37,957 nucleotides of DNA from Armatimonadota bacterium (GCA_016235455.1 JACRKZ010000039.1:1-37957), one strand, 5' to 3'. Numbered from the stretch's first letter, positions 242 to 37,957 are shown. The notes: generated by a model from the letters alone, not told the origin. Numbers and translations are program-made.

Positions 242-1597
242 TCAGGCGTCCAGCGTCTCCTGCTCGTCGGCCTCGGCGGTCTCGAAGTGCGTCCGTCCAT
301 CGACCGCCATGCGCAGCGCACTGACCACCGGCTCGACCTCCGCGCCGTGGTTCACCTCAATGACCCGTCCGCCGACCAGCTCGACGCGGTGGCCTGCACT
401 GGTCTCGGCCACCCCCGCCACGTCGTCCCAGCCGAAGACGGCCTCCTGCCCGGAGGTATCCCGCAGCATCACGCGGCCGCCCAGCACCATCGCGTTGGGT
501 GGATCGTTACGCCTCTCCTGGCGTGCGGCCTCGGCCAATTGGTCAATGACGGCCAGCGCGGCCACGCCGAGGGACACCGCGGTGAGCAGGTAGGCGGTTA
601 GCGTAGCGTAAGCGACGGCACCGGCGACAAGAATCGCGGACAGCCCGACGATGGGTATCCACGGGATGCCGCTCTCGTCACCGGCGTCGAACTGCGCGCC
701 GCCCTGGGCAGGCCGGCTGCCCGGCGTCGCGCGACTGACCCCCCGCAGGGCACCGACCGCCAAGGCCGGCTGACCGGCCGGCGACAACGCCGCCGCGGGC
801 ACCGGCGGCGCCGCGGCGTGGAAGCCAGCACGATGCGCCACCACCGTGCGGAGCGCACCAACCAGCGGCTCAAACGCCGCCGCAGCGGGCAGATGGACGA
901 CCCGACCGCCGCTCAGCCGCACATCGTGCCGCAGTGGGCCAGAGTCGATTCGCTCCACCTGCCCCCAGGCGAACGTGACCGGCAACTGGCCGCGACGCTG
1001 CACCTCCACACCGCTCGGGCCGGCCGCGACACGACACGCCGGCCGCCGCCGTCGGGCTGCCACGTAGGCCGACAGGCGCGCGCAGAGCGCGGCACCAGCC
1101 GCCATCGGCGCCAGTGCCAGCAGCCATGGGTTCCACGGCAGACTGGCGCTCTGGGCGAGGAGCCAGCCAAGCGACACAACGGCGAGGAGGGCGGCCCACG
1201 ACGCCAGGTCGGCGCTGGATGGCGAGTCCTCCACCGGCCCTTCGGCGACGACCGCGACTCGGAACCCGGCCAACCAACGCTCGACATCCGCGGGTTCGAT
1301 GAGAAGGTGCCCGTCGTCCTCGGTTCGCGCGAGCATGGCTTGGTTGATGGCCTGGCCCAGCCCACTCATTCCCGCAACGCCGCGCTCGATCCGCACTTGG
1401 CGCAGACCGGCCTGGACAACCAGCGTGTCGGCGCCGTCCCAGTGCACCGCCGTCACATCGCCCCACGGTATGTGCAGCGGTCGCCCGATCCACCGCTCTA
1501 CCGTGACGCCGTCTTCATCAAGCACTACCGCCCGCCGGTTGCGCAGCCAGCCGTGGCGGTCGGGGAAGCGTTGGGGCTCGCAGTTGGCGCCGCTCAT
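242..1597 (-). CDS. Array paralog 6 (B-type, long, 451 aa): membrane protein with three PH-like modules
   Basis: Starts MSGANCEPQRFPDRHGWLRNRRAVVLDEDG; ATG overlaps the stop of paralog 5 (ATGA, 1594-1597); two hydrophobic hairpins; repeated WxxV beta-rich modules. Confidence 0.85.
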   Translation of the reverse strand: MSGANCEPQRFPDRHGWLRNRRAVVLDEDGVTVERWIGRPLHIPWGDVTAVHWDGADTLVVQAGLRQVRIERGVAGMSGLGQAINQAMLARTEDDGHLLIEPADVERWLAGFRVAVVAEGPVEDSPSSADLASWAALLAVVSLGWLLAQSASLPWNPWLLALAPMAAGAALCARLSAYVAARRRRPACRVAAGPSGVEVQRRGQLPVTFAWGQVERIDSGPLRHDVRLSGGRVVHLPAAAAFEPLVGALRTVVAHRAGFHAAAPPVPAAALSPAGQPALAVGALRGVSRATPGSRPAQGGAQFDAGDESGIPWIPIVGLSAILVAGAVAYATLTAYLLTAVSLGVAALAVIDQLAEAARQERRNDPPNAMVLGGRVMLRDTSGQEAVFGWDDVAGVAETSAGHRVELVGGRVIEVNHGAEVEPVVSALRMAVDGRTHFETAEADEQETLDA

Positions 1598-2499
1598 GCG
1601 TCCAGCGTCTCCTGCTCCGCGTCGGCCGGGCTCAGGCCGCGGTGCGCCTCGGTCCAGCGCTGGCCCGCTGGGGATAGGGCGCTGGCAGGCACCGGCAGGT
1701 GTTCCGCGTCGAACCCCTCGCGCCGGCGTGCCAAGTGACGCAGCGCGTTCAGAACCGGCTCAAACTGCGGGCGGTTCGGCATGGTCAGGTCGCGGCCGTC
1801 GCTCAGGTGGATGCGGCAGCCGTCGGACCACTCCACCAGCCCAATCACTTCGTGCCAGGCGAAGCTGTCGGGCTGGCCGCCGGCCGGATGAATGGTCACC
1901 CTCTCGCTGTCGGCGGTGACGCGGCAGGCGGCGGGGCCGAGCGCGGTCAGGCGCCGCGTCGACAGCCACGTCACCGCGGCGATGAGCTTGGCGGTGAGCA
2001 GCACGACCAGCAACCAGGCGATCCATGCCCAGGTCGATCCGCCGCTCGGCGGCCCGTAGCCCAACGCCAGCCACCACAGCGCCAGGCTGCCCACCAATCC
2101 CAGCCCGAGCGCCCCCGCCAGGGCCACCAGGCCCCCTTCGTGCAGGTCGAGCGCCGGCCGATGAACAGCACTGGTGAACCCTCCCAGCCAGCGCGCCACA
2201 TCGTCGGCCAGGGCGCCGCCAGCGGCGTCCTCCTCGGCCTGCCCGGTGACGCGTTCATGCACCGCGCGCGCCAGTTGGCTGAGCCCCACCACGCCGCGGT
2301 CCAGCGACACGCTGCTGCCCATGGTGATCAACTCGAGCGTGTGCGCGCCATGCCAGCGCGCGCCAGCCAAGTCGCCCCAGGCGATGCTCGTCGGCGGGCC
2401 CAGCCAGCGCTCGACCGTGATGCCGCGCTCATCCAGCACCACCGCCCGCCGGTTGCGCAGCCAGCCCTGTCTGTCCACGAAGCGCTGTTCACCGTGCAT
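1594..2499 (-). CDS. Array paralog 5 (A-type, 301 aa): membrane protein with two PH-like modules
   Basis: Real start MHGEQRFVDRQGWLRNRRAVVLD at 2499 (GAGGA RBS upstream) within ORF 1594..3402; central TM hairpin; ends PVPASALS...RGLSPA...EQETLDA. Confidence 0.85.
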   Translation of the reverse strand: MHGEQRFVDRQGWLRNRRAVVLDERGITVERWLGPPTSIAWGDLAGARWHGAHTLELITMGSSVSLDRGVVGLSQLARAVHERVTGQAEEDAAGGALADDVARWLGGFTSAVHRPALDLHEGGLVALAGALGLGLVGSLALWWLALGYGPPSGGSTWAWIAWLLVVLLTAKLIAAVTWLSTRRLTALGPAACRVTADSERVTIHPAGGQPDSFAWHEVIGLVEWSDGCRIHLSDGRDLTMPNRPQFEPVLNALRHLARRREGFDAEHLPVPASALSPAGQRWTEAHRGLSPADAEQETLDA

Positions 2500-2543
2500 C
2501 CAGGTGTCCTCGCCACGACCGCATCGCCAGGCTCCGCTGGTAT

Positions 2544-3866
2544 TCAGGCATCGTTGAGGCGATCCTGCTCTCCCTCGGCCGCGCGAAGGCGATCCCCGCG
2601 TCCGGAACCGGTCGGCTTGCCGACGGCGGCGCGCAAGGCGGCCACGACTCGCGTGACACCGGCGCCCTCGGGCATCATCACGGTTTGGCCGCTCTGGAGC
2701 TGGATGCGGTAGCACGAACCAACGACCGCCACCGACGCCACGTCGGCCAGCTCGATGGTGCGCCTGGGGCCTCGGCCGTCGCCCAGCACCACCTGCTCGC
2801 CGACGAGGGCAGCCCAGGTTCGCCCCCGCCGACGGCGGCCGCGCTGCGGAGCGCAGCCCTTGAACGCCTCGATGATCACCCGCGGCAAGCGCCACAGCAA
2901 GTACAGGCAGATCCAGGTGCCGGCCAACAACGGCGGTTGGTCTTCGGTGACGCCGTTGAGCCAGACGATCAGCAGCGAAGCACCGGTGATGGCGGCAAGA
3001 GCATAGGGGTTCTCGTCCTCGCCAAGCCCAGTCGGCGGGCTCGGTCTGGCCGCGACTGCCACTGGCGCCGGATCCGCCTCGGACGCCGGTGCCGCCCGGC
3101 TGACACCATGCTCCGCAGCATGCGACGCCGATGGCGGCGCCGATGGCGACAGCGCCGCCAAGGGCACGGGCGGCGGCTGAGCGTGGTACCCGGCGCGATG
3201 CGCAAGGACCATGCGTATCGCGCCGAGCAAGGGCTCCAGCTCCCCTGACGCCGGCAGCGACACGGCTCGGCCATCGCTCAGCGTCACGGTGTGCCGATCT
3301 GGGCCGGACTCGACGTGCACGACCTGCGTCCAGGCGAACTCTTCGGGCAACTGGCCGCGCCGCTGGACCTCGACGCCGCTTGGTCCAACCACCACGCGGC
3401 ATGATGGGCGGCGGCGCCGCGCCGCCATCAGGTCATGGCAGCGCGCATACACGGCGCCGATGACGGGCCACGACGCCAGACCGGTGCCTGACGCCGGCGT
3501 CGGCGCATGACCCTCGGTCACAATCGCCACGTGGAATCCGCCGAGCCAGCGTTCGATGTCTTCGGGTGCGACCGGTATCTGTCCGTCGTCGTCGGCACGC
3601 GCCAGCATGGCCGCATCGATGGCCTGGCCCAGGCCATGCACGCCGTCGACGAAGCGGTCGAGCAGCAGCGTCCGACCGGTCGCCTCGACCTCGATCAGAT
3701 CCGGCCCCAGCCAGGTGGTCGCCAGCACATCACCCCAGGGGAGCCGCGCCGCGCCGCCGATCCACCGCTCGACGGTGAGACCGTCGCCATCCAGCACCAC
3801 CGCCCGCCGGTTGCGCAGCCAGCCGCGGCGGTCGGGGAAGCGTTGGGGCTCGTGTGGCGTGGTCAT
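2544..3866 (-). CDS. Array paralog 4 (B-type, long, 440 aa): membrane protein with three PH-like modules
   Basis: Starts MTTPHEPQRFPDRRGWLRNRRAVVLDGDG; ATGA overlap with paralog 3; closely similar to paralog 6 (GPSGVEVQRRGQLP, AHRAG, PPVPxAALSP). Confidence 0.85.
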   Translation of the reverse strand: MTTPHEPQRFPDRRGWLRNRRAVVLDGDGLTVERWIGGAARLPWGDVLATTWLGPDLIEVEATGRTLLLDRFVDGVHGLGQAIDAAMLARADDDGQIPVAPEDIERWLGGFHVAIVTEGHAPTPASGTGLASWPVIGAVYARCHDLMAARRRRPSCRVVVGPSGVEVQRRGQLPEEFAWTQVVHVESGPDRHTVTLSDGRAVSLPASGELEPLLGAIRMVLAHRAGYHAQPPPVPLAALSPSAPPSASHAAEHGVSRAAPASEADPAPVAVAARPSPPTGLGEDENPYALAAITGASLLIVWLNGVTEDQPPLLAGTWICLYLLWRLPRVIIEAFKGCAPQRGRRRRGRTWAALVGEQVVLGDGRGPRRTIELADVASVAVVGSCYRIQLQSGQTVMMPEGAGVTRVVAALRAAVGKPTGSGRGDRLRAAEGEQDRLNDA

Positions 3867-4780
3867 GCGTCCGCCTTCTCCGACTCGGCCCGGCTCAGGC
3901 CGCGGTCGACATCGTTTGCCCGCGGCTCGTCATTCGCGAGCGACAGCGCGGCGTCCGTCACCGGTCGCTGAAGGCGAATGCGGGGTTGGCGCGCGGCGAG
4001 CACTCGGCGAACGGTGTCAGCCACCGGCCCAAACTCACCGCGCTTGGGCAGGTCAACGTGGGTGCCATTGGCGGTGCGCAGTTCCCAGGACTCGGCGGTC
4101 TCTCTGACCGACTGGATGTCGTCCCAGGCGATGACCTGCTCCTCGTCGTCATGGCGAACCGACAGGTGGCGGCCATCGGCACGGACCGCGCATGTCGTGT
4201 ACTGCGGACCGGTCACCGCGCGGATCAGAGCGCCTGTAACCCGCATCGCGCCCGCCACGGCGCCAAGGTAGGCCACCAGTACCAGCATGAAGAACCCGAA
4301 GTAGCCGCAGTATGGCTCACAGCGCGCCGCGGCGGAGAACACATAGGCGCCGACCACCGCCGCGGCCACCATCACCACCAGCGGGAGGTAGGCTTCCAAG
4401 CGGCCCCGCAACTCGACCATCGGCTGGCTGGCGGAGAGCTCGACGCGCTTGTACTTGAAGCCGCACAGCCACCGCTCGATGGTCGCAATCCGGCTCATCA
4501 GTCGCCTCTTGCCACCTCCGAACTCCGCCATCGCCGTGTCAACGATCTCCGCGAACCGGTCAAGCCCCGCGACGTGCCCGTCAAGGCATAGCTGGCCTCC
4601 GGGCCAGGCCACCCTGAGCCGGTCCGACCGTAGCCAGCTCGCATCGGTCACCTCCGCCCAGGTGATGCTTAGGACGGGGCCTACCCACCGCTCGACCGCA
4701 ATGCCCCGCTCATCGAGCACCACCGCCCGCCGGTTGCGCAGCCAGCCGCGGCGGTCAGGGAAGCGTTGGGCCTCAGTCAT
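3863..4780 (-). CDS. Array paralog 3 (A-type, 305 aa): membrane protein with two PH-like modules
   Basis: Start MTEAQRFPDRRGWLRNRRAVVLDERG at 4780 with strong GGAGGAGG RBS; TM hairpin; ends PVTDAALSLA...RGLSRA...KADA. Confidence 0.85.
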   Translation of the reverse strand: MTEAQRFPDRRGWLRNRRAVVLDERGIAVERWVGPVLSITWAEVTDASWLRSDRLRVAWPGGQLCLDGHVAGLDRFAEIVDTAMAEFGGGKRRLMSRIATIERWLCGFKYKRVELSASQPMVELRGRLEAYLPLVVMVAAAVVGAYVFSAAARCEPYCGYFGFFMLVLVAYLGAVAGAMRVTGALIRAVTGPQYTTCAVRADGRHLSVRHDDEEQVIAWDDIQSVRETAESWELRTANGTHVDLPKRGEFGPVADTVRRVLAARQPRIRLQRPVTDAALSLANDEPRANDVDRGLSRAESEKADA

Positions 4781-4787
4781 GGCTTCT

Positions 4788-5741
4788 TCACCTCCTCCGC
4801 TTTCCACGGCGCCTTCTGGAGTTGGCCGTCGCTTTGCTGATCCCGCGGTCGCCGCCAGGAACGGCTGCCCGGCCGTGTACGGGCGATAGCGCTGTGTCTG
4901 GAACCGGCCGCACCTCGACGTCGCGCTCATCGCGTACGCGCAGCACCAGCCGCAGGACGCGGAAGAACGGGGCGAACTCCGCGTACGGCGGTATCCGCAC
5001 CGGCTCGCCATTGTGCAGGCCAATCTCGACATAGCCCACCCGCCGCACCATGTAGGCGACTTGCGTCCAGCCAAACACGACGCTCGGCACGGCGCCGCAG
5101 CCAACACGTATGGTGTGCGGGTCGACTGACACCAGGCAGGGCCGAGCGAAGCCAACACGCCGAGCCCGCCACCAGCCGTACAGCAGCATCGAACCGAACA
5201 CCGCAAGGGTGGAGCCAGACATGTAGTAGCGGTTGAAGACGTCGCCGCCAGGATCGAATCTGCGAGGCGGAGTATCGCCATGGACTGCGATCCACGCCAG
5301 CGCGGCAAGACCGAATATCGCGACAAACATGCCGCACCCGGTAGCCCACGAAGCGCACCCGGTGTCGGCGCTCTCCGAGACATCATCGCTCGGCGACCCG
5401 CCGACGTACGCCTCGCGGAAGTCGCCGAGCCACCGCTCGATGTCAGCGGGCGCGACGGCTTCGCGACCACCGTCGTGGGCCTTTGGGCGCATCTTCTGTT
5501 GGATGCCCTCGGCCAAGCCGCCCGCACAGTTCCTCAGCCGGAGCGGCCTATCGACGGTCTTGAGCAACAGCACATTCGAACGTTCCCACCGCGCCGCCAG
5601 CACGTTGCCCCACGCGATGCGCGTTGGTGCCCCCAGCCACCACTCGACCGTAAGGCCGTCGTCGTCGAGCACCACCGCCCGCCGGTTGCGCAGCCAGCCG
5701 CCGCGATCGGGGAAGCGTTGGGGCTCGTGCGGGCTGTTCAT
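4788..5741 (-). CDS. Array paralog 2 (B-type start, short, 317 aa): membrane protein with two PH-like modules
   Basis: Start MNSPHEPQRFPDRGGWLRNRRAVVLDDDG at 5741, ATGA overlap with paralog 1; TM hairpin; PVPDTALSP...RGISKA tail. Confidence 0.83.
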   Translation of the reverse strand: MNSPHEPQRFPDRGGWLRNRRAVVLDDDGLTVEWWLGAPTRIAWGNVLAARWERSNVLLLKTVDRPLRLRNCAGGLAEGIQQKMRPKAHDGGREAVAPADIERWLGDFREAYVGGSPSDDVSESADTGCASWATGCGMFVAIFGLAALAWIAVHGDTPPRRFDPGGDVFNRYYMSGSTLAVFGSMLLYGWWRARRVGFARPCLVSVDPHTIRVGCGAVPSVVFGWTQVAYMVRRVGYVEIGLHNGEPVRIPPYAEFAPFFRVLRLVLRVRDERDVEVRPVPDTALSPVHGRAAVPGGDRGISKATANSRRRRGKRRR

Positions 5742-6640
5742 GCGTCCACCTGCTGCTCCTCCGCCTGGCTCAGCCCGCGGTCGACATCGGCGACCGGCTC
5801 GTGCTCGGCCAGTGACAACGCACCGTCCGGCAGGGGCTGGCCGGCGGTGCGGAAGCTCGCCTGGTGGCGGAGCACGGCCCGGATCGTCTCGATGACCGGC
5901 TGGAACTCGCGGCACTTGGGGATCACGATCTGCGCGCCAGGGACTGTCGACACGACGAAGCAACCATCACGCTCGGCGATGGCTGCCACTTCGGACCAGG
6001 CTGCAATCCGCACCCGACCGCGAGTGACTCGGAAGTGCTCCGCATTGGCCGTGATCTCGCAGGCCTCATCGACGGGCGGCCAGAGCCAATGCACGAGGCC
6101 GATGACCGACGCGATCAGGCCGGCCGGCGTGGCCACCATCAGGAGCGACAGACCGGCATAGCCCGGCTCCCCCTTGCCCGGAGGCGTTGTGCCAGTGAGC
6201 ACATACCAGATGCCGCACCCCAAGCCCACGCCAAGGAACAGCAATGTGAAGTCGGCGTACCCCCGGTCAAGCACGCGGTCAGCCGCCGATTGGCGCACAC
6301 CAAGGCGCGCCTTCTTGAACCCGTTCAGCCAGCGGAGCACATCCCCGCCTCCGATCACGGTGCCGCCCCTCGCGCTGTGTCGCGAAGCCAGTTCGGAGTC
6401 GATGCACGCGGCCAGTTCGGTCAGCCGCTCAGTGCCGGCAGCCACGACGAACTCGCCATCGATGGTGGTCACCACCAGCCGCCCGCCGTCCTGCCACGTT
6501 GCCCCGACGATGTCGCCCCACGGCACGCGCTGCGACCGCCCAACCCAGCGCTGGACCGTGATGCCCGCGTCATCCAGCACCACCGCCCGCCGGTTGCGGC
6601 ACCAACCGCGTCTGTCCCGGAACCGCCGCTCGCCGTCCAT
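5738..6640 (-). CDS. Array paralog 1 (A-type, 300 aa): membrane protein with two PH-like modules
   Basis: Start MDGERRFRDRRGWCRNRRAVVLDDAG at 6640 (alternative GTG at 6646); TM hairpin; ends PLPDGALSLA...RGLSQA...QVDA. Confidence 0.83.
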   Translation of the reverse strand: MDGERRFRDRRGWCRNRRAVVLDDAGITVQRWVGRSQRVPWGDIVGATWQDGGRLVVTTIDGEFVVAAGTERLTELAACIDSELASRHSARGGTVIGGGDVLRWLNGFKKARLGVRQSAADRVLDRGYADFTLLFLGVGLGCGIWYVLTGTTPPGKGEPGYAGLSLLMVATPAGLIASVIGLVHWLWPPVDEACEITANAEHFRVTRGRVRIAAWSEVAAIAERDGCFVVSTVPGAQIVIPKCREFQPVIETIRAVLRHQASFRTAGQPLPDGALSLAEHEPVADVDRGLSQAEEQQVDA

Positions 6641-6723
6641 CGTCACCCGCCCTGAAGACACAACGTATCCCACGCGAGCAGGAGTTCTCCCCGCCGTGGG
6701 CAATTCCTACGCGGAGCCTGTCC

Positions 6724-8865
6724 ATGCCCGGTCTGCTATCGTCGTTGCTCACGCTCGCCCTGCTGGCGCCGCCCGACCCGGTCGCGGTCACGCGCTTCGA
6801 GCTGGTCGAACCCATGGCCCGCGCGCTGAGGCCCGCCGGCCTCGTGGCGCAGGTGGCCAACCGCGGTGCCGACACGCTGGACCTGGCCGTGGAGCTGACC
6901 GGCCCGGCCGAGCTGCGCATCGCCAAGCCCAGCACAACGGTCAGGATCGAGGCGCAGGACGAGGCTCGGCTGACGTTTGAGGTGACCGCCGACCAGCCCG
7001 GCACGCGACGGCTGACGCTGACCGTGCGCGCCGCTGGTCAGGTGGTGGCCAAGCGCGACCTCGACGTTCTGTTCCTCGCGCCGGTCGCGCAGCGCAAGCT
7101 GCCGTACATCTCCGCGCCCCAGCCGGTGCGGTCCAAGCTGCTGGTCGGCGCGCACCACTGCCCGCTGTGGGAAGCCGACAAGCCCGAGATGTGGAACCAG
7201 CTCCTGGTGCACCCCGAGCGCACGCCGGCACTGGGCTTCTATGACCAGGCCAACCCCGAGATCTCCGACTGGGAGACCAAGTGGGCCAGCGAGCATGGGG
7301 TCGACTTCTTCATCTACTGCTGGTATCGCACCAAGCAGGGCGGCCCCGTCGAGACGCGCTTCTCCAGCGCCATTGAGCAGGCGTTGCTGCGGTCGAAGTA
7401 CCAAAAGGACATGAAGTTCACCATCATGTGGGAGAACCAGTCCCGCGGCACCTCAGGCGTGGCGGATGAGAAGGACCTGTTCGACAACCTGCTGCCGTAC
7501 TGGATCGACAAGTATTTCAAGACCGAGAGCTACTTGAAGGTGGATGGCAAACCCGTGCTGTTCATCTATCGCCCCGAGTTTCTGGTCCAGGACCTGGGTG
7601 GCGAGGCGCAGGTGAGGGCGGCCTTCGACAAGATGCGCCAAGCCTGCCGGGCCGCGGGCTTCGCGGGCCTGACCCTCCTCGGCGAGTATCGCGGGCTCGA
7701 TGCCAACCACCTGCAGCTCATGAAGCGGCTGGGGCTGGACTACACCTTCGCCTACTGCTGGTACGTGGGCAACAACCCCACCCCGCAACAGGCCATCGAC
7801 GCGCAGATGGGCTACCTGCACAAGACCCAGGAACTGGGCATCCTGCCGCAGGTCGCCACCGTGTCGCAGGCCTGGTCGGGCTGGAGCGACGAGGGCACCA
7901 TCTGGAAGATCCCACCCAAGCAGTTCGGGGAACTGCTTGGGCAGGCCAAGGAGTTCGTCGGCACGCTGCCCAAGGATCAGCTTGGCAGCCAGATGCTGCT
8001 GCTCGACAACTGGAACGAGTGGGGTGAAGGGCACTACATCGCGCCGTACCGCGAGTACGGTTTTGGCTACCTCGATGCCGTGCGCGAGGTCATTGCGGGC
8101 GACACCCGTCCGCACGACGACCTGATCCCGCAGGATATCGGTCTCGGGCCGTATGACAAGGCGTACTGGGCCTGGCGCAACAAGGCCGACGAGCAGCGCA
8201 AACTGGGCAACCGGCGCGTCTTCAAGCCCGGCGCGCCGGCCGACGGGCTGGTCGGCTGGTGGGCGTTCGACGAGGCCGACGGCTCACCCGTCGCGCTGGA
8301 CTACAGCGGCAACCGTCTCGGGGCGAGCATCGAGAAGGCGTCGCGCGCGCCCGGCCGCGACGGCCGAGCGCTGGTCTGCGATGGCGGCTGGGCCGTGGTG
8401 CCGAGCAATGATCTGCTCAACATGGCCAAGGCGGTCAGCATCGAATGCTGGGTGAAGACGGACGTGGCCGGGCAGGGCAACACCTGGATGGTCAATCGCG
8501 TGCTGTCGGGCGGCACCGACACGGGCTACCGGCTGGGCATCCTGGACGGCAAGCCTTGCTTCGAGGTGCCGCAGACCAGCTTCAGCCATCACCTCAGCGC
8601 CGCCGAGCCGCTGCCCACCGGGCGCTGGGTGCATCTGGCCGGCACCTTCGACGGCCGGACCATGCGCATCTATATGGACGGCGTAGAGAAGGGCACCATG
8701 GACCGGCCCGGCCCTATCAAGCCCAGCAAGCTGCATCTGGTGCTCGGCAACTACGAGGTCAGCCACGCCGCCTACTTCCACGGCCTGCTGGACGAAGTGA
8801 AGCTCTGGAGCCGCGCGCTCAGCGCCGACGAGGTCAAGGCCCACGCGGCGGCGGCCGCCAAGTAG
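6724..8865 (+). CDS. Secreted glycoside hydrolase family 99-like (WbsX-like) protein with C-terminal LamG/ConA-like domain
   Basis: Signal peptide; TPALGFYD, GVDFFIYCWY, YLKVDGKPVLFIY, DNWNEWGEGHYIAP motifs; C-terminal GLVGWWAFDE...WVHLAGTFDG...IYMDG...GLLDEVKLWSRALS. Confidence 0.85.
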   Translation: MPGLLSSLLTLALLAPPDPVAVTRFELVEPMARALRPAGLVAQVANRGADTLDLAVELTGPAELRIAKPSTTVRIEAQDEARLTFEVTADQPGTRRLTLTVRAAGQVVAKRDLDVLFLAPVAQRKLPYISAPQPVRSKLLVGAHHCPLWEADKPEMWNQLLVHPERTPALGFYDQANPEISDWETKWASEHGVDFFIYCWYRTKQGGPVETRFSSAIEQALLRSKYQKDMKFTIMWENQSRGTSGVADEKDLFDNLLPYWIDKYFKTESYLKVDGKPVLFIYRPEFLVQDLGGEAQVRAAFDKMRQACRAAGFAGLTLLGEYRGLDANHLQLMKRLGLDYTFAYCWYVGNNPTPQQAIDAQMGYLHKTQELGILPQVATVSQAWSGWSDEGTIWKIPPKQFGELLGQAKEFVGTLPKDQLGSQMLLLDNWNEWGEGHYIAPYREYGFGYLDAVREVIAGDTRPHDDLIPQDIGLGPYDKAYWAWRNKADEQRKLGNRRVFKPGAPADGLVGWWAFDEADGSPVALDYSGNRLGASIEKASRAPGRDGRALVCDGGWAVVPSNDLLNMAKAVSIECWVKTDVAGQGNTWMVNRVLSGGTDTGYRLGILDGKPCFEVPQTSFSHHLSAAEPLPTGRWVHLAGTFDGRTMRIYMDGVEKGTMDRPGPIKPSKLHLVLGNYEVSHAAYFHGLLDEVKLWSRALSADEVKAHAAAAAK

Positions 8866-29328: not shown

Positions 29329-32300
29329 ATGTGCACCCAATCGGCCATATGGGGCTCGGTGACGCGCTGCTTTGCGCCGTTGCTGCTGATCGCGGCGGTC
29401 GCCGCTCCGCAGGCTGCATTCGCGGCCGATGTCTATTCGCAGCGGATCATCGCCGACGGCCCTGCCTGCTACTATCGGCTGGATGAGCTGGCCAACGGCA
29501 CGCTCAGCGATGAGATGGGCAACGCATCGGCCACGGCGACCGGCGCGACCATGGGCGTGGGCGGCGCGCTGGTCGGCCTGTCGTCCACCGCCATGCACCT
29601 GACGTCGTCTGTCTCAAGCGCCGTCGCCGGCAACGCCGCCCAGGTCTTCGCGCCTGGCGAAGGATCCCTGTCGGTTGAGCTATGGGCCCGGCCCACCACC
29701 GAGGGCTACCTGCTGGAATGGCCTCGCAAATACGTGTCGCAGTTTGTATCCACCTGCGGCTTCTATCTCAAGCTCACCGCCGGCACCCTCGAGGGCGCAG
29801 TCGGCCCCTCGGGCAGGTCCGGTGGCTGGTCGGATGCCCAGAGCGCCTTGGCCGCCGACGGAGCCTGGCATCACCTGATTCTGGTAGTCAACCACGGCAA
29901 CGCGCTGCTCGAGCTCTACATTGACGGCGCGCTGGCGGCCGCCGGCGCACTCGCCTCGGGCACCGACATGAACTACGACACACGGTCTCCGAGCCTCTAC
30001 TTCGGGTCAACGACACCTGCCTGGCAGGCCGATGCCGACCTGGACGAGGTGGCCATCTACAAGAAGGCGCTGACGGCGACCCAGGTGATGGAGCACTACC
30101 TGGCCGGTAGCCGCGCCTTGACCGTGCGCACCACCGCGGACTCCGGCCCGGGCTCGCTGCGGTCGGCCATCCTTGCCGCCAATCGGCTGCCTGGCGCGCA
30201 GACCATCGATTTCGCCATCCCCGGCAACTTCGCCCACGACATTGCCCCGACCTCGGCTCTGCCAGCCATCACCAAGCAGGTGACGATCGATGGCTCGACG
30301 CAGCCAGGCTATGCCGGCTCACCCGTGATCGGGCTGGTAGCCTCGGCGCCGAGCGCGCCGGCGCTAGCGGTACAAGCGGGTAGCGGCTCCGTGGCCAAAG
30401 CACTGGCGATCGGTCAGGCGGCCACAGGGGTGGCCACGTCGGCCACCTCCAGCCGCACCACCGTCGCCGCCTGCTGGCTGGGGTTCGACTGCGCGGGCTC
30501 CGTGCGAGGCCTGGGCGTCGGGGTGGACCTCAAGTCACGCCACGACAATGTAGGTGTGACTGGCCCGCGCGGCGGCAACCGCATCGGCAACTGCTCGGTG
30601 GCCGGCGTGCATATCGACGGCGACAGCGGCGCCGGCGACACCACGGTCGAGGGCAACGTAATCGGGCTGGCCATGGACGGCTCGTCACCAGCCAGCGTGC
30701 AGACCGGGGTGTGGCTGGTGAGGAGCACCGGCAACACCGTCCACGGCAACACGCTTGTGGGTCCAACCGCCATCAGCCTTGCCGGGCCGCTGGACGGGCC
30801 CAACGTGATCAGCGCCAACCAGATCGGTCTCAGTGTGGCCGGCACCGCGATCGCCGGCATCGGCACCGGCGAGGGCATCCTCATGGACTCCGTCAGCGGC
30901 GCGACAATCGGTGGTCTGGCCGCCGCCGATGGCAACACCATCGCCAACTGCGCTGCCGCGGCCATCCATCTGATCGCGAGTACCGGCAACACGATCGACT
31001 GCAACCGCATCGGCACCGACCCCACCGGCACCGTCCCCATCGGCACGTCGTTGGGCATCCTGCTGGCCTCTGGCTCGTCGCTGAACCAGATCGGGAGAGT
31101 GGAAGCAGAGCGACCCAATCTGATCGCCTTCACCCGGATGCTTGGCATCGTGATCGTCGATCCGCTGTGCCTGGGCAACGCAATGGTGAACAACAGCCTC
31201 ACGGCCAACAGCGGCGAGGCCATCGATCTGATGCCGTTGGGCCCCAACGCCAACGACGCCGGCGATGTCGACAGCGGTCCGAACCACGGCCAGAACTACC
31301 CGGTTCTGACCAGCGCCGGCGTCTCGGGCGGCAGCCTGACTGTCACCGGCACGTTGGACAGTGCCACCAACTGCGCGGCCTACCCGTGCCGCGTGCTCAT
31401 CTACAGCGTGCCCACGACACCGTCACCCAGCAGCCACGGCGGGACCGAGACGCTGCTCGGCCAGATCACTGTCACCGGCCCGGGCGCCTTCAGCGGCACC
31501 GTGCCTGCCACGCTGGCCGGCGGACGCAGCATCTGCGCGGCGGCCATCGACAGCGAGAACAACCAGAGTGAACTCGGCACCAACCTGGCGGTGGCGGGGC
31601 CGGCCACTCATGCGGCCTTCGTCAGCCAGCCCAGTGACACCGTGGCCGGCGCGACCATGGCGCCGGTCAGCGTCGAACTGCTCGACGCGGACGGCCGTCG
31701 CGCCGCGGGCGAGAGCCGCAACGTCACCCTCGCCCTGACGCCGACCGGCGGTCCGCCGCTGGGCGGCACGCTCACCGTCGCCGCGAGCCACGGCCTGGCC
31801 ACGTTCAGCACGCTTGCCATGTCCACCGCCGGCACCAGCTACCGCCTCGGTGCCACAGCCCCAGGCCTTACTGGCGCCACGTCTGGCGCCTTCACCATCA
31901 CCCCGGCCGCGCTGGACCCGACCGGCACGCTGATCGTCAGCGACAAGGCCAGCGCGCAGGCCGACGACTTCGAGCTGGTCACGCTGACGCTGACCGCGCG
32001 CGACCGCAACGGCAACGCCATAGCTGGCGTACCCGCGGCCAACATGGCTGTGGGCGGCTCGCCCAGTGCGGGTCTGACCATCACGCAGCCGGGCTCGGCC
32101 ACGGACACCAACGGCCGGACCACGGCCACGGCGCGTTGCGCCAATGTCGGCACCGTGACCTTCACGCCGTCGATCAACGCCACGGTCAGCGGTCACACCA
32201 CGCCGGTGCGCTTCCTGGCCGGCGCGCCGGTGCCGCTGTACTGCGACCTGCAGGCCAGCCGCACCTCGGGCACGGCGGACGGCGCCGACCGCATCACCTT

Positions 32301-35300
32301 CACCCTGACCATCCGTGACCTGCAGCGCCGCGTGGTGGCCGATGTGCCCGCGGCGCAACTGCAGCTGCAGGCCAACCCCGCGGCTGGCGTGAGCATCACC
32401 CAGCCCAGCGCCGCGACCAACGCCGGCGGGCAGACCACGGCCTCGGCAGTCTGCACCAAGGCCGGCACGGTCACCTACACGCTGTTGGTCGGCGGCACTG
32501 AGGCTGGCGGACCGCAGACAGTGACGTACTCGCCGGGTCCGCCGGCCGCCGCGACCAGCGCCCTGACCGCGGACAAGACCACGGCGGCGGCCAGCGGCAG
32601 CGAACTGGTCAACTTCGCCGTGACGCTGCGCGATGCCCAGGGCAACCTGTGCCCCGGCGTGCCCGGCAGCCGCGTGCTCCTCGCCGCCAGCCCGGCGACG
32701 GGCATCAACCTCGTTCAGCCGTCGGACGTCACCGGCGCCGGCGGGGCGACGGGCGCCTTCTGCACCGCCGTCCGCGCTGGCCGCGCGACCTTCACGGCCA
32801 CGCTGGACGGTAGCGCGCTTCCCGGTAGCGTCGCTGTGGACTTCGTGCCCGGCCCGCCGCACATGGGGGTCTCCACGGTCAATCCCGACCAGCCCACGCA
32901 CCGCGCCAACGGCCATGACGCAGCGATCATCACCGTCACGCTGCAGGACGTGCAGGGCAATCCGGTGTCGGGCGTACCGGCCAGCGACATCGTGATCTCG
33001 TCCGACCGCGGTAGCGCGGTGACCATCACCCAGCCCACGGGCATCACCAACTCCGCCGGCCAGGTCACCGCTTCGGCCACCACCACCGGCGCGGGGCTCG
33101 TGGTGTTCGGCGCCACGTCACCTTCAAGCCCGGTGTGGTGGACGCCGATCGCTCGACGATCGAGGTCAATCGGGCCAGCCTGGCCGCCGATGGTGCCGAC
33201 GCCGCGCAGATCACCGTCACCGCCCGGGACGCCAACGACAACCCGCTCTCGGCGCTTTCGTCGTCGAACGTGGTGTTGTCGGTGACGCCCTCGGCCGGCA
33301 CCCGGCTCACGCAACCGTCCATGGCCACGGACACGGCTGGCCAGACGACGGGCAGCCTGACCTGCTCACGCGTGGGCACGGTGACGGTCAGTGCCCAGGT
33401 CAACGGCACCACACTCAGCCAGACGCTGCGCGTGGGCTTCGTGCCGGGCATCATCGACGCCGACACCTCGGGCGTGCAAGCCGATGCGGCGCAAGTCGCC
33501 GCCGACGGCGGCAGTCCCGTGACGCTGAACATCACGCTGCACGACCGCGATGGCAATCCCATCGCCGGCGTTGCCGCCAGCCGCCTGCGGATCGTGGGCA
33601 CACCAAGCGCCGGCTTGGGCCTGGGGCAGCCCGCAACCGCTACCGACGCCGCCGGCCAGACCACCGCCACGGCGGTCTGCACTCGACTCGGCCAGGTGAC
33701 GTTCACCGCGACCATCGACGGCGGGACCATGGGCACCAGCGATGTCGTGGACTTCGTCGCCGGCCCGCCGGAGGCCGTGCGGTCAACGCTGAGCTCAGAC
33801 CGCGCCGTCGCCGCCTCGGATGGCCGCGAGGGCGCGGTGCTCTCGATCACGGTGCGGGACGCGCAGGGCCACCCGGTCGCCGGCGTGGCCGCCAATCGCG
33901 CCCTCTTCCAGGCAGCGCCGAGCAGCGGTGTGACCATCACGCCGTCGGGTGCTCCCTCCAATGCCAGCGGGCAACTGATCGCCACCGCCACCAGCAGCGT
34001 TACGCAGACCGTGACCTTCAGCGCCTCCTTCGATGGCGCCGCTGTGACCGGTCAGCCGCAGGTGAACTACAGCCCGCACCAACCCGACCTGGACCACTCG
34101 CTGCTGGCCGCGACGGCCACCAGCGCCGTGGCCAATGGTGTTGACCGCATTACCTTCACGCTGACCGTGCGCGACAACCAGGACCGGCCGGTGACGGGCG
34201 TTGCCGCTAACCGCTTGCGGCTAACCGCCGCGCCGGCCACGGGCCTGACGCTGACCCAACCGTCGATGGCGACCGATGCCAACGGTCAGACCACAGCCAG
34301 CCTGGTGGGCACGGTCACCGGCAGCTTCGCCTGCGGCATGACGCTCGACGGCGTGGCCGCCGGCGCTGAGGTCACGGTCGAGTTGCGCCCCGGGCCAGTC
34401 AGTGCCCGGAGTTGCCTGCTGACCGCCGACAAGGCCGTTGCCGCCTCGAGCGGCAGCGACGCGGTGACCCTCACGGCCACGCTGCGCGACGCGCTGGGCA
34501 ACGCCGTGCCGGGCGTCCTGCCTGGGCGGCTCGGCCTCACCCTGGCGCCGTCGGCCGGCACCACGCTGGTTGGCCCGAGCGGGGTCACCGACGCCGCCGG
34601 TCGCACCACCTGGACGCTGACCAGCACGGCCAACGCCACGGTCACCTGCGCGCTGACGGTCGATGGCGCCGACGCCGGCGCGTCGGTGCAGATCGCCTTC
34701 AGCACGGCGCCGCCGGGCGTCGACCGCGCACGTTGCACGCTCGCCGCGGACCGCGCGTCCGCCACGGCCGACGGTGCCGATGCGGTGACGTTCACTGCAA
34801 CCATCATCGACGCGGCCGGCCAGCCCATGGCCGGGGTGTCCGCTGACCGGCTCGCCCTGACGCCCGACGTGGCCGCCGGCCTGACGGTCAGTGCGTTTGG
34901 CGCCACCGACGCCCAGGGCAAGGCGACCGCCGCGGCCACCGGCGCCACCGCGGGCTCGCGCACCTTCGCGCTGCGGGTCGATGGTCAGTTGGCCGGACAG
35001 ACGGTGTCTGTCGCCTTCACCGTCGGCGCGGCCGATGCCACGCGCTCCACGCTCGGGGCCAGCAGCACCTCGGCCATCGCCAATGGCAGCGCCGCGATCG
35101 TTCTCACGTTGACGCTGCGCGATGCGCACGGCAACACCGTCGCGGGCGTCCCGGCGTCTCAGATCGCCCTGACCAGCGCCGGCGGCGCCGGCTCGGGCCT
35201 CGTGCTCGCTGGGCCCGCCGCGGCCAGCGACGCCTCCGGCCGCATGACCATGACCGCCAAGGCCAGCGTGGCGCAAGCCGTGCAGTTGGTCGTGACGTAC

Positions 35301-36938
35301 GGCGGGCTGAGCTGGGCCGTGGACGTCACATTCGTCGCGCCCACACCGGCCCCCGGGCGCTCGACGGTGAGCATCTCGCCGTCGAGCGTCGCCGCCGACG
35401 GCACGGACACCGCCGTCCTCACCGTGCAACTGGTCGACGCCGACGGCCACCCGCTGCCGGGCTCGCTCCCCGCCGACCGCTCCGTGACCAGCAGCGTGCT
35501 GGCCATCACCGTCACCGACGCCGGGTCGGTCTCGGACAGCCAGGGCCGGTTCACCATGCGCGTGACCACCCGCGAGACGGGCACCACGCAACTGACCGTG
35601 ACGGCCAACGGCGTGCGCCTGGCACCGGTCACGCTGACCGCCGAAGGCTTCTATGACCTGACGCTGTCCGCGGGCCTGCACTTGCTTGGCCTGCCCGTCA
35701 CCCCGCCGCCCGCGGCCTACCAGGCCCTGCTGGCGACCAGCGGCGTCGAGGCGGCGACTTTCGACGCGACCACGCAGCGATACGTCACCGCGGGCGGCAG
35801 CTACGCGCCGGGCCAGGGGCTGTGGGTTGCCAACTCGGCTGCGATCAGCCGCCGCGTGCTCGGCACGCCAATGCCCAACACGCCGCAGCGCCTGGTCCTA
35901 AGGCGCGGCTGGAACGCGGTGGCCAATCCGTTCACGCAAGCGCTGGACTGGGACCTGACCAGGCTCAGCGTGGAGTCAGGCGGCGTGTCGCTGGGCCATC
36001 TCGAGGATACCGCGTTGTGGGCGCGCGTCGCGCCGTACGGCTGGGTGTTCGACCAGGCCACGGGCTACCGGCTGCTGGCCGACACGTCGCTGGCGGCGTT
36101 CGCCTCGGCCCAGGGCAGCCTGCCCGTGGGCGCCGGGTTCTGGTTCTACGCCGCGCAAGACGGCCTGACGCTGGTCCTGCCCGCGCCTGCCGCGGCGCGC
36201 GCCGGTCGGGCGCCGTCAGCGCCCAAGGCGGGCGACTGGTCGCTGGCCCTGCGCGCGGTCCAAGGCGACCAGCACGGCACTGCCCTGGTCGGCGTCAGCG
36301 GCAGCCTGGCCGGTGGCCTGACGCTCGCCAAGCCACCGGCGGCACGCGGTCAGGCGGGCCCGGCGCTCAGCCTGCTGGCCGCCGACGGCACCCGCCTGGC
36401 GGGCGACTTGCGCGGCACCGGCCAAACCACCACCTGGACGCTCGACCTGACCGCCGGCGCGACCGACGAGGTCGTGCTCAACTGGCCGGGCCTGGGCCGC
36501 GAACTGCCGCGCGGGCTGGTGCTGGAGTTGCGGGACGGCGTGAGCGACGGCCTGACGCTGCTCAACACCAAGGCCGCCTGGCGCTGGCAACCGCACGCCG
36601 CGGGCGAAACGCGCCGGCTGACGCTGACCGCTCGGCAGGGCCATGTGGCCCGTGCCACGGTCACCGGCCTCGACCTGACCGCCACCCGCGGCGGCTCGGC
36701 GGCCATCCGCCTGACGCTCAGCGCGCCGGCCGAAGTGACGGTGCAGGTGCGCGGCCTGGGCGGGCGGCTGGTCAGAACGCTGACCCAGACGTGCGAGGCG
36801 GGCACCACGCTGCTGACCTGGGACGGCACCGACCAGTCCGGCCGACCCGTGCCGGCCGGCAGCTACCGGCTGGAGGCGCAGGCGGCCAGCGCCGTTGGTG
36901 CGTTGGCCAAGACGGTGAGGACGGTGACGCTGGGGTGA
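29329..36938 (+). pseudogene. Giant secreted adhesin-like protein (LamG + beta-helix + 12 Big_1/invasin Ig-like repeats + FlgD-Ig tail), split by a frameshift at ~33117
   Basis: ORFs 29329..33285 and 33135..36938 carry one continuous repeat series; signal peptide; WHHLILV/DEVAIYKKAL LamG; TTADSGPGSLRSAILAAN beta-helix; repeated ADG.D...TLTLRDA.GN; C-terminal GGRLVRTL...WDGTDQSGRPVPAGSY. Confidence 0.8.
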
Positions 36939-37025: not shown

Positions 37026-37957
37026 CTACCAGTCCATGCTCACCACCTGAAGCCCGGCCGGCAGATCAGGATATAGCCACCGGCCCGGTTGGCCGCCTTG
37101 CCCACGACGGTACACGCCGAAGGAGGACGCGTCACTGGCCCACGCGGGCCTGCGCTGGGCGCGGAACACCGCGATGCATCTGCTGTCTGGTGACCAATCG
37201 GCGCAGACCAGGTCGCCCGACGTAGCGATCCCGCCGAGGATCTCAGTGGCTTCGCCCGCAGCTATGGGCACCAGGAACGGATCGCTGCCAGCCCCGCTCG
37301 GCCCGACTCTCGTCGAGCCTGGGTTGGGCGTCATCCAGACCAACACCCTCGAACCATCGGGCGCCCAGTCGACCAGACGAGCCTGCTCACGGGCAGACCA
37401 TTCGACTTCGGATGTGGGCTGACGGAACCGAACCTGGCGCAGCTCTCCCGTTGTGCTGTGCCAGAGGAGAACCTGCCTCTGGCCGGTCTTCTTCAGAAAT
37501 GCGTCGAACGCTATCCAACCACCACCAGGCTGCCATCTGGGGTTGTAACAGCAGCACCCGTCCAACACCGGGGCAGAGACGTCACGGTATTCGATTGTGC
37601 CGACCTTGGCAATCCGCAGGAGCGAGTCCACGGAGCCCAGGCCCGGCGCGCTGTTCAGCACCTCATATGCGCACCGGTCGCCATTTGTCTCGAAGGAGAA
37701 TCGGCCGGCCTGTTCATATGCTGTGCGAGAGTACAAACTGCGGCCGCCGAGAGTGCCCAGGAACCTTGCGAATATGCAAGCGCCGTTTGGATCCCAGACA
37801 CCATCGAACCGCCCGACTAGTGCACTGATCGGTACAAACCGGAAACTCGATGGAAGAGGCGCGCCCAGGTCGGCCAATTCGCGTTCTGCCAAGGACACGA
37901 ACCATGCCCACCCAGACGCGCCTCCAGCTTGTTCTCCAACCTGAGCAGATCGCCTTC
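37026..37957 (-). CDS. TolB-like/PD40 beta-propeller protein, 5'-truncated by window edge
   Basis: Frame open to the window end; repeated NPRWQPGGGWIAF, DWAPDGSRVLV, DWSPDSRCIAV blades; ends VSMDW. Confidence 0.65.
   Translation of the reverse strand, partial: RRSAQVGEQAGGASGWAWFVSLAERELADLGAPLPSSFRFVPISALVGRFDGVWDPNGACIFARFLGTLGGRSLYSRTAYEQAGRFSFETNGDRCAYEVLNSAPGLGSVDSLLRIAKVGTIEYRDVSAPVLDGCCCYNPRWQPGGGWIAFDAFLKKTGQRQVLLWHSTTGELRQVRFRQPTSEVEWSAREQARLVDWAPDGSRVLVWMTPNPGSTRVGPSGAGSDPFLVPIAAGEATEILGGIATSGDLVCADWSPDSRCIAVFRAQRRPAWASDASSFGVYRRGQGGQPGRWLYPDLPAGLQVVSMDW

Follow-up and report, generated by a model that had tools for sequence, protein, structure and literature searches.

The window analyzed here is a contig of 37,957 nucleotides (nt), taken at its full length (C120), from the 6.5-Mb, 185-contig genome (~70% G+C) of an Armatimonadota bacterium (GCA_016235455.1, JACRKZ010000039.1). 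Its minus strand carries, between positions 242 and 6640, six tightly packed paralogous genes that encode membrane proteins with Pleckstrin Homology (PH)-like modules. An earlier interpretation made from the DNA alone (hereafter the sequence-only reading) had reported six consecutive minus-strand paralogs at exactly this span, and the coordinates, the coding composition and BLASTP comparisons of all 15 pairs bear it out. From the first operon gene to the last, these are g6 (5738–6640; 300 amino acids [aa]), g5 (4788–5741; 317 aa), g4 (3863–4780; 305 aa), g3 (2544–3866; 440 aa), g2 (1594–2499; 301 aa), and g1 (242–1597; 451 aa). Each begins with an ATG placed a few codons ahead of a common N-terminal motif, and in each the G+C content at third codon positions (GC3 0.80–0.89) is higher than at first and second positions (GC1 and GC2), as expected of coding DNA, and slightly lower than that of seven neighboring genes (0.87–0.91). 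Because all 15 BLASTP pairs match, with 27.6–42.9% identity and E-values from 1.4e-22 to 4e-99, the likeness of the six proteins is far above chance. The array is complete at both ends: a convergent DUF1848 gene ends ~12 nt from the g1 stop codon, and a divergent WbsX/LamG gene (6724–8865; 713 aa) lies 83 nt from g6.

Three of the five junctions are 4-base ATGA overlaps between a stop and the next start codon (g6/g5 at 5738–5741, g4/g3 at 3863–3866, and g2/g1 at 1594–1597, all on the minus strand), the other two being gaps of 7 nt (g5 to g4) and 44 nt (g3 to g2). The "..DA" C-terminus of g6 (..VDA), g4, and g2 is encoded by GAC GCA TGA, which contains the ATG of the following gene, and GGAG-rich runs occur within the preceding tail codons in the 25 nt inspected ahead of each start. 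Given the three overlaps, the array reads as three couples, g6–g5, g4–g3, and g2–g1, each made of a protein of ~300 aa (short, or A, type: g6, g4, and g2) followed by a second protein, which in two couples (g3 and g1) is a long, three-module form (B type). In the remaining couple, g5 is likewise overlapped by g6 but is devoid of the third module. This couple structure is well supported by gene order. A tree of 40 sequences, comprising eight proteins of this genome and the P0008–P0041 members of 240–460 aa, to the exclusion of the others, also groups g5, g3, g1, and the 444-aa metagenome protein P0008 into one clade (support 94/93), with g1 and g3 as closest relatives (99/95), and DNA similarity spans the junction between the tail of a short gene and the head of a long one (70.9% over 470 nt and 76.8% over 207 nt). 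Descent of the three couples from a single ancestral couple appears only partly supported, since the short genes do not form a clade. The 83-nt spacer between g6 and the WbsX/LamG gene (6641–6723) offers the only room for an operon promoter; a scan for sigma-70 promoters and terminators returned no promoter and one terminator-like site, which is on the wrong strand, fewer than expected from shuffled sequences. We also observed that the sequence of the g2/g1 junction (1587–1627) recurs at the end of g1 (235–272; 90% over 41 nt), so that the last gene ends in a relic junction with no gene after it.

All six proteins are built on the same plan: a PH module, an RWLxxF linker, a membrane hairpin, a second PH module, and a disordered tail with two invariant serines (ALS...RGLS). 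To this plan, g1 and g3 add a third hairpin and PH module, a feature absent from the sequence-only reading, as are the ATGA overlaps and, described below, the additional family members of this genome, the overlapping arrays of metagenome relatives, and the codon-level likeness of the 5′ ends. The shared motifs listed in that reading are all present, with small departures in g3, g4, and g5: in the N-terminal motif (IAVERW in g4, TVEWW in g5), in module 1 (WGN in g5), and in the tail (PVT in g4, HGVS in g3); the invariant part of the linker is RWLxxF, where ERWLxGF had been given. The tail of g5 ends in a basic RRRRGKRRR stretch. The loss of the hairpin ascribed to a fourth paralog is real and corresponds to g3, the fourth gene counted from position 6640, whose layout is PH1-(first hairpin lost)-PH2-tail-hairpin-PH3. 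Wide divergence between the conserved anchors was also found, conservation being patchy by region, with mean pairwise identities among the six proteins of 0.81 in the N-terminal motif, 0.51 in the linker, 0.41 in the tail, 0.36 in PH1, 0.29 in PH2, and 0.17 in the hairpin.

The PH-like nature of the modules is supported by several approaches. In a Pfam scan, g6 (32.6 bits) and g1 (29.7 bits) exceed the gathering cut-off of bPH_6 (PF10756; 22 bits), g2 (20.5 bits) and g4 (20.2 bits, in its second module) fall just under it, and g3 and g5 give no bPH_6 match at E ≤ 1; across the family, 18 of 26 members match this model at E ≤ 0.01. The NCBIfam scan gave nothing above any cut-off. By these scores, the domain is that of Pfam bPH_6, yet no family model spans the whole architecture, so that the proposal of a locus without a named family holds for the architecture and not for the domain. 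An AlphaFold2 model of g6 (alignment of 8 rows; predicted local distance difference test [pLDDT] 73) displays a first PH module of seven strands and a helix (residues 5–86), a short helix at the invariant RWL (98–105), two long helices (120–149 and 161–186), and a second strand-rich module with its helix (194–261), followed by the disordered tail. The g1 model (alignment of 26 rows; pLDDT 80.9, with the three PH modules mostly above 90) is composed of PH1 (9–91), a hairpin (128–183), PH2 (187–256), a disordered serine-containing tail (275–320), a helix or hairpin (318–363), and PH3 (369–450). Every module of both models shows the PH-like succession of strands and a C-terminal helix. When the g6 model was searched against 48,161 Protein Data Bank (PDB) chains, the 50 matches listed were mostly of PH, PTB, FERM-F3, and GRAM type (Z 7.2–9.1, 72–95 residues aligned); scores of 7–8 are common in such searches, and the weight therefore rests on the consistent fold class. 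The architecture of PH-like modules and transmembrane hairpins put forward in the sequence-only reading thus receives support from the bPH_6 scores, from models with two to three PH-like modules, and from this search, while the Foldseek comparison it had recommended produced no match at E ≤ 1e-3 for the g6 or g1 models, the best rows being tandem-PH chaperones and FERM domains. Profile searches against PDB sequences matched no solved structure (best E 0.075). The nearest clusters in the ESM Atlas (score 0.90), which we consider as leads only, are unnamed or labeled "YqeB-like bacterial PH" (bPH_10 on 15% of members). Comparison of the PH1 and PH2 profiles (43.9% probability, E 2.4e-4, 72 columns in register) gives a weak sign that the two modules may be duplicates of each other.

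Hydropathy profiles reveal two transmembrane segments in g1, g2, g4, and g6, with an additional pair in g1, one clear segment in g5, and a distal segment only in g3. The sole parts predicted to face outward are the hairpin loops, of 3–16 residues. Lysines and arginines number 6 among the 75 residues that precede the hairpins, 2 among the 47 of the loops, and 12 among the 75 that follow the hairpins, and the loss of a whole hairpin in g3 leaves both of its flanks on the same side of the membrane. On the basis of this loss, of the short loops, and of the charge counts, all PH modules and tails are predicted to be cytoplasmic. In the model, the arginine-rich RFxDRxGWxRNRR stretch of the N-terminal motif forms the beta1–beta2 loop of the first PH module. 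We abandoned a PilZ-like interpretation of the N-terminal RxxxR, as no PilZ match appeared in the Pfam scan.

How do these proteins compare with characterized systems? Like other bPH_6 membrane proteins, they have a PH module tethered to a two-helix hairpin, and four of the six match that model at E ≤ 1. They differ in that a soluble PH module comes first, two or three modules occur per chain, the RWL linker is invariant, the double-serine tail is conserved, and the genes form ATGA-coupled tandem arrays. Our literature search retrieved no paper describing this architecture or a function for bPH_6, and "PF10756" occurred in none of the papers covered. In architecture and couple layout, the proteins most resemble those of the YdbS/YdbT type, which comprise YdbS/YdbT of Bacillus subtilis and DdE/DdF of the enterocin DD14 locus (bPH_2; COG3402/COG3428). 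According to the sections of PMC8657885 that deal with them, YdbS/YdbT-like proteins are adjacent short–long couples encoded at one locus and in one orientation in several Gram-positive bacteria, and both DdE and DdF are required for the export of enterocin DD14 (EntDD14). As here, the long protein of that type has three PH modules and hairpins, with the PH modules predicted to be intracellular (relevant parts of PMC8657885 and PMC2817789). The differences are equally clear. Proteins of the YdbS/YdbT type have a hairpin of their own ahead of each PH module, whereas all six proteins of the array start with a soluble PH module of ~90 residues; their short protein has one PH module instead of two; and three couples follow one another here, with no bacteriocin or ABC (ATP-binding cassette) transporter genes nearby, unlike at the DdE/DdF locus. 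None of the six proteins matches bPH_2 (PF03703) at E ≤ 1, nor is bPH_2 among the families matched by the 26 members. Judged by these scores and by the leading PH module, membership in the bPH_2/YdbST family fails. A second point of comparison is provided by soluble, single-module PHb proteins (PF08000), which share the PH-like fold and, in the portions of PMC2817789 devoted to them, assemble into C5 and C12 rings by beta-sheet extension; such oligomerization through open sheet edges may serve as a model for the modules of the array, to which it is extended by analogy. In the same portions, the authors suggest that PHb proteins linked by hairpins, whose PHb would lie inside the cell, function as transporters or pores.

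We tentatively favor, as a reading that falls somewhat short of an even prospect, a scenario in which the products of the array are co-translated and form a hetero-oligomeric assembly in the inner membrane, by analogy with YdbS/YdbT or DdE/DdF. The six genes would constitute one operon of three short–long couples encoding diverged paralogs of a rare inner-membrane family. Helical hairpins would anchor each protein and, with this anchoring, the PH-like modules and the serine tail would face the cytoplasm and the short loops the outside; the arginine-rich beta1–beta2 loop of PH1 could then lie against the anionic inner leaflet or bind an anionic ligand. The ATGA overlaps would ensure that subunits are made in fixed ratios, and the subunits may join edge to edge through their PH modules into a hetero-oligomer beneath the membrane, a step we propose by analogy with soluble bacterial PH domains, which build rings through such contacts, and with YdbS/YdbT and DdE/DdF, which act as short–long couples. 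Such an assembly might serve membrane transport or envelope homeostasis.

Several observations weigh against this scenario. Fold and gene order are the only grounds for the suggested function; the family's match is to bPH_6 and not to the bPH_2 model of YdbS/YdbT, and its proteins begin with a soluble PH module, which YdbS/YdbT do not; the short genes, rather than grouping together, fall into a polytomy in the 40-sequence tree; and co-transcription of tandem paralogs does not require that they form a complex. Moreover, none of the arrays examined, that is, the main array, nine other loci of this genome, and five loci from relatives or metagenomes, has a cargo gene, an ABC transporter, or another conserved partner beside it.

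We addressed the distribution of the family with a profile of eight paralogs from this genome, which, among 1.84 billion representative proteins, retrieved 185 matches at E ≤ 1e-3, 68 at E ≤ 1e-10, and 22 at E ≤ 1e-30. The first seven in rank come from this genome itself, and the others keep the plan and the motifs. Across 26 sequences, R6, L105, S276, and S291 (g6 numbering) are invariant, and G12, R18, G34, W41, W104, W215, and R288 nearly so. The ten clusters examined are singletons, mostly from ENA assemblies, one of them annotated "hypothetical protein." The four JGI metagenome contigs retrieved carry two to four family genes each, in tandem and on one strand, with an ATGA overlap at seven of the eight family-gene junctions listed; together with the arrays of this genome, they establish the tandem expansion suspected in the sequence-only reading as a real property of the family. 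Among 40 relatives scanned, all five further members of the window's taxonomic family gave matches, which fall mostly in the C-terminal module, and three genomes elsewhere in the order or phylum gave marginal matches only (~3–5e-4). In a sample of 401 genomes of the phylum, for each of which five candidates were scored, five genomes reach E ≤ 1e-8, all belonging to the window's own family. The neighboring WbsX/LamG gene has orthologs in all five family relatives (48–73% identity), and no family member was found in the regions examined upstream of them in G004 (11.8 kb), G001 (3.2 kb), and G005 (4.1 kb); in G002, the contig ends 1.3 kb upstream. Searches of the plasmid and phage collections by tblastn with g6 gave no match, and no related locus was found in the genome-contig collection with the family alignment and protein P0011 as queries.

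Judged from the tree, the paralogs are old and deeply diverged, with terminal branches of ~1 change per site and some paralogs grouping with proteins from other organisms. A clade of nine metagenome sequences (support 100/100) represents a lineage-specific expansion. For the pair of g1 and g3, the ratio of nonsynonymous to synonymous substitution rates (dN/dS) ranges from 0.22 (PH2) to 0.69 (PH3), with 0.50 overall and no region above 1, at synonymous divergences (dS) near saturation. Eight public DNA runs from two studies, and no RNA run among those listed, contain part of the stretch: in one study, contigs of three runs together cover the whole array, with 0–16 differences per piece and breaks at the conserved N-terminal motifs, and a run of the second study provides short pieces of g1, g2, g3, g5, and g6. 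Joints that skip 132–3294 nt were considered as copy-number variants and rejected, their sides being only 20–30 letters long and located at the repeated N-terminal motif. At the left end of the window, positions 1–466 match the terminal part of a second contig in the assembly (G000:C59:47656–48121) with 94.6% identity; the differences are evenly spread (12 in 1–241, 13 in 242–466), and those affecting codons of the g1 tail are synonymous in seven cases and nonsynonymous in five. A strain variant that was co-assembled, with a contig break at this point, is the probable explanation.

The 5′ ends of the six genes are more alike than the rest. Within the first ~35 codons (1490–1597, 2390–2499, 3760–3866, 4675–4780, 5635–5741, and 6535–6640, minus strand), identical residues use the same codon in 254 of 346 pairwise comparisons (0.73), against 503 of 1049 elsewhere (0.48); these pairs are not independent, and no probability is hence attached to the difference. 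The identity of the N-terminal motif, 0.81 among the six, is 0.53 across the 26 family members, while other regions differ little between the two sets, and dS between g1 and g3 is 0.63 in PH1 against 0.98–1.84 in the remaining regions. In metagenome arrays, neighboring genes share their own version of the motif, MTPQRF[VL]DH.GW.RNRRAVRV. These comparisons suggest gene conversion or a shared constraint acting on DNA or RNA at the gene starts.

Beyond the array, tblastn and profile searches disclosed two further full-length copies on contig C166, with a pectate-lyase-like gene between them, and many shorter "linker-hairpin-PH-tail" proteins in the same genome. Three rounds of profile search yielded 75 module matches in 43 open reading frames (ORFs), largely arranged in tandem arrays (six on C167, five on C98, three each on C3 and C114, and several pairs), at loci that include C167:20351–26390, C98:1–4627, C114:29838–32969, C3:35840–39956, and others on C132, C135, C52, and C90 (L039–L047). 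Their common denominator is the tail with two copies of the [AG/RG][LI]S motif, which a regular expression finds near the C-terminus of 40 ORFs; reversed and shuffled controls gave 7 and 14 ORFs, respectively.

This tail lends itself to another interpretation, in which the proteins would be a phospho-regulated or ligand-sensing membrane scaffold, with PH modules that bind lipid or nucleotide and tail serines (ALS...RGLS, with arginine at −3) that act as kinase or docking sites throughout the superfamily. The invariance of S276 and S291 and near-invariance of R288, the position of the tail within a disordered segment of the models, its recurrence in the 40 ORFs beyond control levels, and the basic beta1–beta2 loop of PH1 are all consistent with it. 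We nonetheless consider it unlikely, as no kinase, phosphatase, FHA, or output domain lies beside any array examined, no ligand-binding family was matched in the Pfam and NCBIfam scans, and the kinase-site reading is based on general consensus motifs only. A bolder possibility, to which we give little credence, is that the ~43 tail-bearing paralogs, with the six-gene operon as the array best conserved among them, make up combinatorial rings or lattices of PH domains along the cytoplasmic side of the membrane in a bacterium of the Planctomycetota–Verrucomicrobiota–Chlamydiota (PVC) type, the invariant double-serine tail linking all of them to one partner by docking or phosphorylation; if true, this would be a bacterial PH-domain membrane-organizing system without a described counterpart.

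The sequence-only reading had proposed that the array is a polymorphic immunity or receptor repertoire comparable to the tandem esaG copies of Staphylococcus aureus, a proposal that our analyses do not support. Under the immunity form of this hypothesis, each paralog would counter its own membrane-acting toxin or bacteriocin, and the variable hairpin would set the specificity. Both situations indeed share a row of diverged paralogs, and the conserved ends and very variable middle of the present array (compare the hairpin and N-terminal identities above) and lineage-specific expansions such as the nine-sequence metagenome clade are in favor of this form. YdbST is, moreover, held to confer on B. 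subtilis resistance to a Bacillus antimicrobial. No experimental evidence stands behind this annotation, according to the section of PMC8657885 that discusses it. The single bacteriocin-type hint among the loci examined consists of two adjacent Peptidase_C39-like ORFs near distant family members on contig C3 (L042:3404–4865). Otherwise, the neighbors of the arrays are heterogeneous (glycoside hydrolases, sulfatases, oxidoreductases, and a major facilitator superfamily transporter among them), and no toxin, secretion-system, ABC-transporter, kinase, or phosphatase gene recurs beside those examined. The absence of a cognate toxin from the window, already remarked upon, is borne out: no toxin, LXG/Rhs/contact-dependent inhibition (CDI), type VI or type VII secretion system (T6SS/T7SS), or bacteriocin gene was found in the 38 kb or beside the other arrays examined, and no orphan toxin fragment is interleaved in the array, whose inner spacers measure at most 44 nt and whose flanks are the DUF1848 and WbsX/LamG genes. 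Unlike in esaG-type arrays, no toxin or secretion system adjoins, the genes are translationally coupled, which implies joint synthesis and not independent modules, and the products are membrane proteins whose large domains are predicted to be cytoplasmic. The paralogs are old, no region has a dN/dS above 1, contigs from two studies carry nearly the same genes with no trusted copy-number joint, and transmembrane segments vary freely in most membrane proteins. As no homology to a known immunity family appeared in the Pfam and NCBIfam scans either, we regard an immunity repertoire as quite improbable.

Machinery for the export of, or self-protection against, leaderless peptides, as described for DdE/DdF, LnqC/D, or aureocin Orf7/8, would account for the short–long layout of the couples and for hairpins that tether PH modules. 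At our locus, the spacers (7, 44, and 83 nt, and ~12 nt between g1 and DUF1848) leave no room for a peptide gene, and no small-peptide gene adjoins the main array or the others examined; no ABC transporter domain was detected among the 16 window ORFs scanned, and bPH_2 is not matched, which makes this explanation a doubtful one. Multi-copy membrane proteins of unknown function are common in defense islands, but a role as anti-phage or abortive-infection effectors is very improbable here, given that none of the six proteins matches PADLOC (PADLOC-DB 2.0) at E ≤ 1, that g6 found no tblastn match in the phage or plasmid collections, and that the neighbors are glycan-degrading enzymes with no integrase or defense genes among them.

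Hairpin-tethered bacterial PH domains are widespread, and very little is known of their role, the functional data coming from YdbS/YdbT-like couples in leaderless-bacteriocin export. The present proteins are a variant of this known kind of PH-domain membrane protein, of moderate interest and new in architecture. They are rare, as the 185 representatives indicate, and are distinguished by coupled tandem paralogs, an arginine-rich beta1–beta2 loop, and a double-serine tail common to ~40 proteins of the genome. If they form hetero-oligomeric rings, as the favored membrane-assembly scenario would have it, they could offer a tractable model for the organization of membrane complexes by bacterial PH modules; if they do not, the array would amount to an ordinary lineage-specific expansion of paralogs, of which this genome has many others.

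Outside the array and its flanking genes, the products encoded in the window are glycan enzymes, a sulfatase, and Big_1 proteins that resemble adhesins. Two very large ORFs (1318 and 1267 aa) on the plus strand (29329–36938) contain repeated Big_1/Invasin_D3 domains, with LamG in one of them, and look like adhesins. The right end of the window (37817–37957) shares an exact 141-nt overlap with another contig, in its interior or at its end (G000:C138:17577–17717), and the two probably neighbor each other in the assembly graph. Finally, the genome contains 99 matches to DUF1559 (PF07596), against none in 14 control genomes, along with many sulfatase and glycoside-hydrolase genes, a gene content that we take to be of the kind found in Planctomycetota and the wider PVC group.

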